From contig OZ253555.1 in the NCBI GenBank assembly GCA_965262725.1, forward strand, positions 736,001-800,000: a stretch of 64,000 nt of DNA. The letters run 5' to 3'. The DNA comes from Dehalococcoidia bacterium (lineage in GTDB: Bacteria > Chloroflexota > Dehalococcoidia > UBA2979). This document shows, in pieces, positions 1-51,058 of the stretch; the stretch's first letter is position 1, and each line of letters opens with the position of its first letter. The position numbers and the translations under genes were made by a program. Under the pieces are notes generated by a model. That model was not told where the DNA came from and did no database searches. It saw only the letters and a list, made by a program, of their open reading frames with translations.

Positions 1-289
1 GCGCATGCACCACAACCCGGTGAGCGTGGCGCAGTGGCTAGCGCGGGTACTGCGTGGGTGGCTTGGCTACTACGCGGTGCCGACGAGTTATCGGTTCCTC
101 CACCGCTTTGTGCAGACCTTGCTTCGCATGTGGTGGCAGGTCTTGCGGCGGCGGTCGCAACGGGACCGTTTCTCGTGGGAGCGCCTCGATGCCCTGTGCC
201 GGGACTACTGGCCCCGAGTCTCCATCCTCCACCCGTGGCCAACGCAGCGATTTACCGTCAGGACTCAAGGCAGGAGCCGGATGCACTAG
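1..289 (+). CDS. Group II intron RT/maturase, C-terminal part (truncated by window edge)
   Basis: Domain X motif RGWLGYY; no En domain; stop codon lies inside DV. Confidence 0.85.
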   Translation, partial: RMHHNPVSVAQWLARVLRGWLGYYAVPTSYRFLHRFVQTLLRMWWQVLRRRSQRDRFSWERLDALCRDYWPRVSILHPWPTQRFTVRTQGRSRMH

Positions 290-345
290 CGTGCATGTCC
301 GGATCCGTGCGGGGGGTGCCGGGTAACCGGCATCCCTACCGCGAA
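1..345 (+). mobile_element. 3' end of group II intron #1 (class E-like): maturase C-terminus, domain V and domain VI
   Basis: ORF tail WLARVLRGWLGYYAVP...ILHPWP is a typical domain X. DV is GAGCCGGATGCACTAGCGTGCATGTCCGGATC (~274-305). DVI GGGGGTGCCGGGTAACCGGCATCCCTACCGCGA ends at ~344-345. Confidence 0.85.
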
Positions 346-485
346 AGAACCTCACGTCCGGTTCGATGTGGCAGGGGCTGGAGACGGACGCTGCTATGGC
401 CGTGGAGTTGGGCACCACCGGGAAACCGGCTTGGAACTGATGCGCCACCGCCTACGGCTCGCACCGCGCCAGCCCCTGACCCTAC
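345..485 (+). mobile_element. 3' end of group II intron #2: 3' half of domain V plus extended domain VI
   Basis: AAGAACCTCACGTCCGGTTC is the loop and 3' strand of DV only. It is followed by GGGGCTGG...CCAGCCCCTGACCCTAC, homologous to the intron #3 end at 1291-1446. Confidence 0.8.
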
Positions 486-1279
486 ACGACCGGTTGATGG
501 AGGCGGTGGAGGAGCGGATATATGACCGGAAGCTCCTGAAGCTGGTGCGGGCGATGCTCCGTGCCGGGGTGATGGAGTCCGGGGCCGTGCGGCACAGCGT
601 GACGGGTACGCCACAGGGCGGGGTAGTATCCCCGCTTCTGGCCAACGTCTATCTGCACCGGGTTGACCGGGAATGGGAGACGAGGGGCCGGGGAGTGCTG
701 GTGCGATATGCCGACGACCTTGTGGTGCTCTGCGGAACGCAGCGGGAAGCGGATGCGGCGCTGGCGCTGCTCCGTGAGCTGGTCGCCGAGCTCGGACTGG
801 AGCTGAAGGCGGAGAAGACCCGCATCGTGCACCTGGCGGAAGGAGGCGAGGGGCTGGAGTTCCTCGGCTTTGAACACCGGTGGGTACGGGCTAGGCGGGG
901 TTCGAATCTCCGATTCCTTGCACGCTTTCCCTCGCGACGAGCGATGCAGCATGCACGTGACCGCATCCGTGAGATGACGGTGCGGTCACGGTTGGTGTTG
1001 AGCGTGGAGCGCATCGTGCAGGAGGTGAACCGCCTCCTGCGCGGCTGGGCGGGCTATTTTCGTTACGGGAACGTGGCGAAGTCGTTCCGCAAGCTCAGTG
1101 CGTACGCCGCGTTGCGGCTGGTGGTGTGGTGGGGTAAGCGTCGGCGCAGTCGGCAACGTCTGCGGTACGGCGTGTCATACCGCCATGCGACCCGCCTCGG
1201 TCTGCTCTCGCTCAGTGGATGGGTTGTCGCACCGCGGCCGAACCGGTCGTGGCGGGTGAAACCGAATGCCGTCCGGTGA
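486..1279 (+). CDS. ltrA: Group II intron #3 reverse transcriptase/maturase, 3' part (interrupted at 485/486 by intron #2)
   Basis: (H)DRLMEAVEERIYDRKLLKLV, GTPQGGVVSPLLANVYL, RYADD, FLGF and RGWAGYFR (domain X); no En domain. Confidence 0.9.
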
Positions 1280-1446
1280 AGGGCGTCGGTAAGCCGGATG
1301 CGGGAGAACCGCCTGTCCGGTTTGACGGGGAGGAGCTGGAAACGGGCGATATGCCATGGCCGTGGGATTGGGCACCGCGGGGAAACCTGCTCGGAACAAG
1401 AGCGCCACCGGCCTACAGCGCGTACCGCGCCAGCTCCTCACCCTAC
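486..1446 (+). mobile_element. Group II intron #3, 3' portion
   Basis: Intact DV AAGCCGGATGCGGGAGAACCGCCTGTCCGGTTT (1291-1323). Long DVI GAGGAGCTGG...CCAGCTCCTCACCCTAC ends at 1446. Confidence 0.88.
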
Positions 1447-11135: not shown

Positions 11136-11232
11136 TGGCGGGAGTGCGTGGGAGTCGAACCCACCCAGGACTGCGACGCAGCCCCACGACGGTTTTGAAG
11201 ACCGCGGGCACCACCGGACACCATCCACTCCC
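11136..11232 (-). tRNA. selC: tRNA-Sec (anticodon TCA)
   Basis: GGGAGTGG...GCGGTCT-TCA-AAACCGT, long variable arm GGGGCTGC/GCAGTCCT, T-arm GTGGGTTCGACTCCCAC, 3' GCCA; 97 nt. Confidence 0.95.
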
Positions 11233-28068: not shown

Positions 28069-28145
28069 GGTGGGTGTCGCCTAGCGGTTAAGGCGCCAGG
28101 TTGTGGCCCTGGAGACCGGGGGTTCGAATCCCCTCACCCACCCCA
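28069..28145 (+). tRNA. tRNA-His (GTG)
   Basis: G-1 GTGGGTG, anticodon arm CCAGG TTGTGGC CCTGG, GGTTCGAATCC, 3' CACCCAC CCCA. Confidence 0.96.
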
Positions 28146-50801: not shown

Positions 50802-50859
50802 AATTTCGTCACAATCACGTATGGAAGGCATGCGTACGTGACGATGCCCTTTCAGGGCA

Positions 50860-50969
50860 CTGCCAAATCTCCCTTCGGGGAGACCGGGGGAACCACTCTT
50901 GGGGTGAACCCTCTTCGGAGGGCGGGTGAGTCTGCTCCACCCGAACCCGTCAGCTTACCCCGGCGGCAG
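50860..50969 (+). ncRNA. c-di-AMP (ydaO/yuaA) riboswitch
   Basis: CTGCC/GGCAG closing stem, GCCAAATC, CGGGGGAACC, TGGGGTGAA, CCCGAACCCGTCAGCTTACCCCG; TTCG-capped hairpins. Confidence 0.88.
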
Positions 50970-51058
50970 ACGAGCAGCCCCGGCCGGTGGGATGCCGGCA
51001 CGGACCCTCCCGCTTGGGAGGTTCGCGCCACCCGGTGGCGCGAGGAGGCTTGGCTGCT

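Follow-up and report, generated by a model that had tools for sequence, protein, structure and literature searches.

The DNA studied here is a 64,000-nt stretch (the window, G000:C1:736001-800000) of a Dehalococcoidia bacterium, whose genome (G000; assembly GCA_965262725.1, contig OZ253555.1) is one contig of 3,674,403 bases with a completeness of 91.55%. The left end of the window falls within a nest of three group II introns inserted one into another, which we will call A (outer), B (middle) and C (inner); relatives in the family of A that encode a reverse transcriptase (RT) are called Y. Positions are given in the window or in a locus that includes the upstream DNA, L031 (G000:C1:732001-737700), the window coordinate being the L031 coordinate minus 4000. 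Two further genomes recur below, G003 from the same genus and G008 from another genus. Along L031, the 5' cores of A, B and C are followed by the 3' ends of C, B and A, i.e. in the mirror order A5-B5-C-B3-A3 (Table 1). All three introns begin with GUGCG (L031 582, 1701 and 2423), in agreement with the conserved GUGYG, and the Rfam models of the domain I-IV core (D1D4 models, gathering score 49) matched each of them above gathering, D1D4-4 in A (91.8 bits) and in B, D1D4-6 in C. In the folds of all three, a domain V (DV) hairpin with the AGC triad and a 2-nt bulge was present, together with a domain VI (DVI) whose bulged A lies 7-8 nt from the 3' end.

The original prediction, made from the letters of the window, had claimed three successive intron 3' ends, and Rfam matches, folds and comparison of copies located all three where it had put them. 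Its first end, given as about 344/345, is at 345 and not at 344, as homology to 15 other C-type copies in G000 stops at 345 in every one. The partial DV said to follow, with loop and 3' strand only, begins at 346 with AGAACC. The second end, in CCCUAC at 485, was confirmed, as was the resumption of an RT frame in mid-codon behind it: (C)AC GAC CGG, or H-D-R, from 486 continues through positions 140-352 of TIGR04416 (the group II RT/maturase profile of 353 positions, cut-off 300 bits). The third intron does have a DV and DVI of its own ending at 1446; RF00029, the Rfam model of group II domains V/VI with a gathering score of 40, matched window 1289-1446 with 36.5 bits (E 4e-5), and the fold combines DV 1292-1322 and DVI 1327-1443 with bulged A1440 (z -3.9). 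The 3' region of C (window 272-345) reached 30.3 bits (E 0.0014), and both matches are thus below gathering. For the DNA upstream, the original prediction expected, in this order, the 5' end and RT start of the outer intron, the 5' end of the middle one, the 5' half of a DV and the start of the inner one. This is the order found: the 5' strand of B's DV ends at L031 2422 and the GUGCG of C starts at 2423, which places C inside the DV loop of B, and the two halves of A's RT abut on the profile (2-137 and 140-352), which places B inside the RT open reading frame (ORF) of A. Its nesting interpretation is hereby supported.

Table 1. Positions of the intron nest, of interrupted copies elsewhere in the genome and of other features in the window
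Feature	Position	Strand	Description	Basis
A, outer intron	L031 582-5446	+	own length 1,119 + 961 = 2,080 nt; GUGCG...CCCUAC; encodes RT	
A RT, N-terminal half	L031 1160-1699	+		TIGR04416 2-137
B, middle intron	L031 1701-2422 and 4346-4485	+	722 + 140 = 862 nt; GUGCG...CCCUAC; no ORF	
B core, D1D4-4	L031 1769-1905			102.8 bits
B DV, 5' strand and first loop G	L031 2409-2422	+	ends ...GAGCCGGAUGAGGG, directly before C	
C, inner intron	L031 2423-4345 = G000:C1:734423-736345	+	1,923 nt; GUGCG...CGCGAA	
C core, D1D4-6	L031 2458-2687			152.6 bits
C RT/maturase ORF	L031 2787-4286; window part 2-289	+	500 aa, no internal stops	
C, 3' part	window 1-345	+	5' 1,578 nt upstream of window	
C DV	window 273-306	+	34 nt, 2-nt bulge	fold (z -4.8), RF00029 alignment
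C DVI	window 308-343	+	bulged U337/A338	fold
B DV, remainder	window 346-365	+	four last loop bases AGAA and 3' strand (AGAACCUCACGUCCGGUUC)	
B expanded DVI and 3' end	window 370-485	+	bulged A479, CCCUAC at 485	
A RT/maturase, C-terminal half	window 486-1279	+	stop 1277-1279	TIGR04416 140-352
A DV	window 1292-1322	+	AGCCGGAUGCGG-GAGAA-CCGC(CU)GUCCGGUU	RF00029, fold
A expanded DVI and 3' end	window 1327-1446	+	bulged A1440, CCCUAC at 1446	
Interrupted copies of A and B	G000:C1:346759-344131, 412733-410129, 408952-406324, 294033-291404, 1391732-1392941			
Selenocysteine tRNA	window 11140-11232	-		71.6 bits, above Rfam gathering
tRNA	window 28070-28142	+		above Rfam gathering
Cyclic di-AMP (c-di-AMP) riboswitch	window 50851-50981	+		76.1 bits, above Rfam gathering

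Intron C is inserted in B after the first base of the DV loop and before the second (GAGG-G^AGAA-CCUC; here and below, ^ marks the point of insertion). Its ribozyme part is short, the ORF beginning at intron position 365, and the encoded RT matched TIGR04416 over positions 2-352 with 360.7 bits as well as Pfam RVT_1 and GIIM; Pfam, read at E <= 0.01, reported no endonuclease domain in the RTs of A and C. The branch point of C is presumed, from the fold, to be the bulged A, 7 nt upstream of the 3' splice site (345^346). The 3' ends of A and B (AC) agree with the usual AY, and C ends in AA, as do the 15 other C-type 3' ends in G000. In the AGC triad of C-type DVs, the G stands opposite an A and not a U (6/6 copies compared), and the DVI helix shows compensatory changes between copies of G000 and G008. 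The RT frame of C-type introns also crosses the 5' strand of their own DV, with the UAG stop (window 287-289 in C) in the DV loop.

Membership of C in class C (IIC) was considered in view of the short ribozyme part and rejected. C-type introns have a conserved block resembling intron-binding site (IBS) 2, their 5' exon being conserved over 14 nt with an IBS2-like UUAGCCC and an IBS1, AUCCA; moreover, C sits inside a hairpin loop and not downstream of a hairpin. The nearest RTs of solved structure, found by sequence search of the PDB, are of IIC-type and other group II introns, by which the class is not defined. The commonest C-type family in G000, C2 (14 copies), starts with GAGCG instead of GUGCG and occupies dispersed sites, which share only the 14-nt 5' exon U(U/A)AGCC(C/U)(U/G)(G/A)AUCCA. 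Several of these sites have the 3' exon CCGAAGAAGAGUGCGCGAGCGG in common, and one is part of a palindrome.

Intron B was found in 28 copies in G000, 24 of which are full-length (862 nt) with 0 mismatches. Of the 28, three lie in RT genes of the A type and 13 in those of the Y type; the other 12 are elsewhere, at sites that share the upstream sequence UCGAG...C(C/U)GC^. Among the 13 is one tandem pair of identical copies arranged head to tail within a single RT gene (G000:C1:549500-551223), the second adjoining the CCCUAC of the first. Uninterrupted copies fold into GAGCCGGAUGAGG-GAGAA-CCUC(AC)GUCCGGUUC. Because positions 1-664 and 666-862 of B align with the two ends of Y-like introns, leaving out about 1.2 kb between them, B is, by its sequence, best described as an ORF-deleted derivative of the same intron family, in which domains I-III, V and VI and the start of IV are kept. 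Its 3' part (window 346-485) is 79% identical to that of A (window 1305-1446). As in ORF-less non-autonomous derivatives, the ORF is deleted internally, both ribozyme ends are kept and many copies occupy sites that fit the exon-binding sites (EBS). At a homologous position of domain I, B has GACUCG and A has GAGUC, matching their own 5' exons, CGAGUC and GACUC, respectively; this position looks like EBS2 in both. The DVIs of A, B and Y, about 115 nt long (window 370-481 in B and 1327-1443 in A), carry a large structured insert above the branch-point helix, which makes them far longer than the Rfam consensus allows.

Without exception, the A- and Y-type RT genes of G000 are interrupted by B: none of the 15 is free of it, and all are cut between TIGR04416 profile positions 138 and 139. 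In A itself, the insertion splits the codon CAC, with C at L031 1700 and AC at window 486-487, and the protein would be rejoined as FESIP^H^DRLM. Pfam matched RVT_1 (1-83 and 90-204) and GIIM in the RT of A, and the YADD motif is present. Altogether, 53 TIGR04416 matches were counted in G000, and the 12 uninterrupted group II RT genes among them are all C-type. At least 63 group II cores are present, 44 of D1D4-4 (28 B, 12 Y and 4 A) and 19 of D1D4-6. Since the copies of B, Y and A are near-identical, their sequences suggest recent multiplication; if the A/Y family did multiply recently, its RT supply should therefore come from messages with B spliced out. The preferred homing site of B would accordingly be a conserved stretch, the FESIP^H codons (UUCGAGUCGAUACCGC^AC), in the RT gene of its own family. 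A family in which every RT gene is interrupted by its own ORF-less derivative appears to be new.

Next, we consider the sites in their empty state. The remaining 27 copies of B, the 24 full-length ones among them, have uninterrupted DVs of exactly the same sequence, with L031 2422 joined directly to 4346, and a copy of A with B and without C was found at G000:C1:344131-342006, 100% identical across the site. As for A without B, a 1,440-nt contig from the public run X5 joins L031 1699 to 4485 with 0 differences. The kind of this run is not on record, and the contig may stem from DNA in which an A copy lacks B, or from spliced RNA; in both cases, the joint agrees with the prediction. In Y-like introns of G003 and G008, the RT gene is continuous at B's site. 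Hence, as is usual for twintrons, each inner intron is wholly enclosed by the outer one, the boundaries are exact, and the outer intron also occurs in copies that lack the inner one. A joint in run X8, connecting L031 564 to 5447 by way of 28 letters of other sequence (depth 2.6, side 33), was considered as an empty site of A and dismissed as too thin.

The original prediction had also suggested that DV is a targeted site. The part of this that stood concerns the closest relatives of C, which form a sub-lineage surveyed in 99 genomes of the family. C-like introns of G008, which are 92% identical to C, occupy the identical loop position in three dispersed Y-like hosts that encode an RT; their junctions read ...GAGCCGUGUGCGGG^...^AGAACCGCA, with the strand GUGCGGG before the insertion. 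A recombinant copy, L064, adds a fourth 3' junction, so that four of the five host-type DVs of G008 are occupied, and the only empty one has a different loop, GCAAA. The hosts carrying C-like introns are themselves at four or more different sites. Two of the inner copies (a and b) have 0 mismatches over 1,918 nt and the RT regions of their hosts differ at 23 of 1,138 positions; because of this discrepancy, the sequences suggest that within G008 the inner intron has spread from one host to another. The insertion in G000 is independent of those in G008, as it lies in a different host, which is identical to the uninterrupted B copies. As for L064 (G008:C1:2447000-2452500), it contains a chimeric C-type intron with a C2-like 5' part at a UUAGCCCGAAUCCA^ site and a 3' part of the DV-sited sub-lineage, followed by the 3' strand of the host's DV. 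It looks like a product of recombination between two introns with loss of the intervening DNA.

The part of the targeting claim that did not stand concerns C-type introns at large. In G000, only one of 20 C-type 5' ends lies in a DV, namely that of C itself (0/19 for the others), and none of the 12 C-type copies in seven other genomes of the family does. The sole copy of the C sub-lineage outside a DV is located at a DV-like sequence, GGUGAGCGGCGGCGCGGG^AG.

The original prediction had further proposed a check of EBS1/IBS1 pairing with the DV half. The EBS of C were assigned by alignment and covariation among C-type families; a blind k-mer search for complementary stretches was dropped as a method, since it returned dozens of chance matches in an RNA so rich in GC. 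The candidate EBS1 is a variable 6-nt segment, the last six bases of a domain I hairpin loop in the Rfam consensus structure, and it covaries with the 5' exon among the C-type families (UGGAUU-(A/G)AUCCA, CCCAUU-AAUGGG and CUCGCA-UGCGGG). CUCGCA, which is found in C and in most G008 copies, pairs with UGCGGG, the DV strand of the G008 hosts and of A. One G008 copy has a second variant, CUCUCA, the exact complement of a UGAGGG-type DV. The complementarity was thus borne out, and perfect pairing with B's DV was not, one mismatch being present at -4. On these grounds, targeting of DV by the C sub-lineage is supported, if narrowly, by the sequences of two genomes, and we lean towards the view that the regular homing site of this sub-lineage is the DV terminal loop of another intron family, EBS1 lying on the upper helix strand and EBS2 on the near-invariant AGC(C), with a three-tier chain as the outcome in G000. 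A recurring DV target with a matching EBS1 appears to be new.

Taking these observations together, the nest was probably assembled, and would be spliced, as follows. A, which encodes an RT, would have arrived first at an intergenic spot. B would then have homed into the RT gene of A, and in G000 into every copy of this gene. C, autonomous and of a different structural type (D1D4-6), would have reverse-spliced last into the DV loop of B. It probably came last because B with a split DV could not have carried C along. During this step, the EBS1 of C, CUCGCA, would pair with the 5' strand of the upper DV helix together with the first base of the loop (UGCGG-G; in B, UGAGG-G), and its short EBS2, GGCU, could pair with the AGCC containing the catalytic triad. 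Whereas the structure of the nest and the preference for its target can be seen in the genomes compared, we infer the splicing order, inside-out from C through B to A, and likewise all activity. As long as C is present, its exon-binding sites would hold one strand of B's hairpin, and 1.9 kb would separate the two strands. C would have to splice first because its EBS1 should hold the strand that the DV of B needs; doing so by means of its own RT/maturase, it would rejoin the catalytic hairpin of B. B would splice next, helped in trans by an RT of the A/Y type or by self-splicing, and thereby repair the RT frame of A. A would be the last, its own maturase being made only once B is out.

We put the probability of this explanation as a whole, i.e. 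a three-level nest formed by successive retrohoming, with C in the DV loop of B and splicing presumably proceeding from inside out, at roughly 0.8. Several points weigh against it. The two RF00029 matches do not reach the gathering score, and C terminates in AA instead of the usual AY. C is single-copy in G000 and has no donor copy there, its closest relatives in this genome being 85% identical. Opposite B's UGAGGG strand, its EBS1 has a mismatch (G opposite A, at -4), and the EBS2 candidate (GGCU-AGCC, the latter including the catalytic triad) makes only 4 bp and is tentative. Of the host-type DVs in G000, just 1/43 is occupied, and the DV-sited sub-lineage occurs in only 2/99 genomes of the family. 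Not every one of the four junctions in G008 need be an independent event, and one (L064) is recombinant. An exact-pattern scan of species-representative genomes for the 3' junction found only four loci, on one contig; three of these match G008 loci identically over a 400-nt piece, and L069 was unmatched by that test. In metagenome contigs of the Joint Genome Institute (JGI), the 3' junction pattern gave 0 matches; the 5' junction pattern gave seven contigs, all judged to be chance matches (0/7 true), because they lack group II Rfam matches and do not resemble C in their continuation. Polishing might account for part of the 100% identity among copies. Lastly, it is the single-contig assembly that places C in this particular copy of B, the contigs listed for the public runs do not bridge B and C, and no listed run holding the stretch is on record as RNA.

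How do other explanations fare against these data? From the window alone, three consecutive 3' ends could be read as tandem 5'-truncated intron fragments or recombination scars without nesting, a reading that the matching 5' halves upstream, the mirror order and the exact junctions have already refuted and to which we assign practically no weight. An assembly artefact, be it misthreaded repeats, a C that belongs in another B copy, or a chimeric join, would draw on the 28 identical copies of B and the 3-4 copies of A, as well as on the completeness of 91.55%. It would also draw on the Logan contigs listed for the runs X1, X5, X6 and X8, which stop at repeat boundaries and none of which spans the B-C or the C-B junction; in X6, parts of C are without cover. 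However, both junctions of C lie at one position of B with canonical intron ends, which is not expected of a chimera, the same type of junction occurs four times in the independent assembly of G008, and the genome is a single 3.67-Mb contig, so an artefact seems very unlikely. More serious, though still doubtful in our judgement, is the possibility that the insertions are real and recent and that C no longer splices from B, this B and A copy being inactivated relics. Nothing selects for splicing of A, as it lies in non-coding DNA, the listed runs hold no RNA evidence, the IBS1-EBS1 pairing is mismatched, and non-splicing inner introns are documented in plant mitochondria (PMC7049729). Inactivation is at odds with the intact state of C (a 500-aa RT frame, GUGCG, DV, DVI and bulged A), with the compensatory DVI changes between G000 and G008 copies, with the 100% identity of the B and A parts to recently multiplied copies, and with the G008 hosts that carry C-like introns at four or more different sites.

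The nest could also be real and the landing of C in a DV a one-off ectopic retrotransposition into a look-alike of its target rather than a habit. Just one in 20 C-type 5' ends of G000 and 0/12 copies of the seven other genomes are in a DV, EBS1 is mismatched with B's DV at -4, and the targets of C2-type introns (UUAGCCC..AUCCA) have AGCC in common with the DV strand, so that chance resemblance is plausible. Still, the closest relatives of C are at the same loop position in four of five G008 host DVs, EBS1 pairs perfectly with the DVs of G008 and its second variant fits the other DV variant, and the host in G000 is different and independent. We therefore regard a one-off event as unlikely, and habitual homing into DV remains the reading that we prefer.

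As for the surroundings of the nest, A is situated in intergenic, non-coding DNA, and the flanks of its three 3' ends in G000 are all different beyond TCGT. The 5' exon of A, GCUCGACUCCUUCGGGU (L031 565-581), is the complement of an AAGGAG ribosome-binding-like site about 20 nt ahead of the likely start (..VATWNVRW) of a minus-strand gene upstream of A. We take the N-terminus of this gene to resemble the endonuclease/exonuclease/phosphatase family. The 4.9-kb nest may separate the gene from its promoter. What is presumably an IS21-like gene pair, judging by translated frames, lies just upstream of the nest (about -7000 to -4600 as window offset). In other copies of A and B, blocks of some 2.6 kb and 1.2 kb intervene. 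The aligned parts on either side share 4-8 nt at the break, which suggests that the blocks are insertion sequences with target duplications rather than introns. Further structured RNAs in the window are listed in Table 1.

Nested introns, ORF-less inner introns and even a domain V twintron, that of Euglena psbF (Copertino and Hallick, 1991), are already known. The inner intron of psbF reportedly splices first, and the psbF introns are said to lack ORFs and to be degenerate. Going by its title, a study by Dai and Zimmerly from 2003 is said to describe homing into related intron ORFs in Methanosarcina acetivorans. In M. acetivorans, nests of up to five introns arose by repeated site-specific homing into other group II introns (PMC4424553). 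The nest described here is similar in having no coding exons around and in mixing ORF-less with RT-encoding members, and it differs in that its innermost intron belongs to another structural type and sits in a DV loop, that the host is a bacterium, and that there are three levels. As a general rule, the inner intron must often splice first (PMC4424553). The twintrons of TeI3 (ORF-less) and TeI4 in Thermosynechococcus elongatus (Mohr et al. 2010, PMC2882425) resemble ours in that an ORF-deleted derivative outmultiplies its parent and that identical inner copies occupy one site in diverged outer ORFs; TeI3 is mobilised in trans by the RT of its family (PMC2882425). In that case, the site of the inner intron is between two start codons, which allows the RT to be produced without splicing, and two of the introns have continuous ORFs, unlike B, which cuts the RT domain itself (between 138 and 139) in 15/15 copies, and a third level is present here.

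Three further systems come close to single features of the nest. In Euglena gracilis psbF, the first twintron to be described, a group II intron lies within domain V of another one (PMC8393795). This is a single chloroplast locus, whereas here a mobile, RT-encoding lineage is met again at one DV loop position in different hosts and in more than one genome, its EBS1 matching. For a bacterial twintron of Trichodesmium erythraeum, sequential splicing in vivo was shown, and the idea of inner introns being favoured at positions that the host intron needs in order to splice was stated in the same paper (Pfreundt & Hess 2015, PMC4649490); unlike in our nest, that inner intron is in domain I, and the twintron has two levels and lies within a protein-coding gene. 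In the atp9i87g2 twintron of Lycopodiaceae, removal of the inner intron rebuilds the maturase frame of the outer one (Zumkeller et al. 2020, PMC7049729); this twintron belongs to plant mitochondria, occupies a single locus and consists of elements of no known present mobility, all of which sets it apart from the nest in G000. In the full-text literature searched, in which subscription journals were thinly covered, we found no description of a bacterial intron lineage homing into domain V, and neither PMC5572947 nor PMC12584367 added anything on a domain V insertion.

Nested group II introns serve as models for the multiplication of selfish ribozymes, for the dependence of ORF-less elements on shared splicing factors, and for layered splicing dependencies. 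There is also a practical warning in that automatic intron finders overlook the outer members of such nests (PMC8919778). The nest in G000 goes beyond the described cases in two respects: i) a lineage recurs at one nucleotide position of the catalytic hairpin of its hosts in two genera, with matching EBS, and ii) a host family without a single intact RT gene (15/15 cut) consists of copies that nevertheless look freshly multiplied. If our reading is true, the host ribozyme could not mutate the DV target away without losing its own function. At the same time, catalysis by the host would become conditional on the splicing of its parasite, and a chain of dependence would run from C to B and then to the RT of A.

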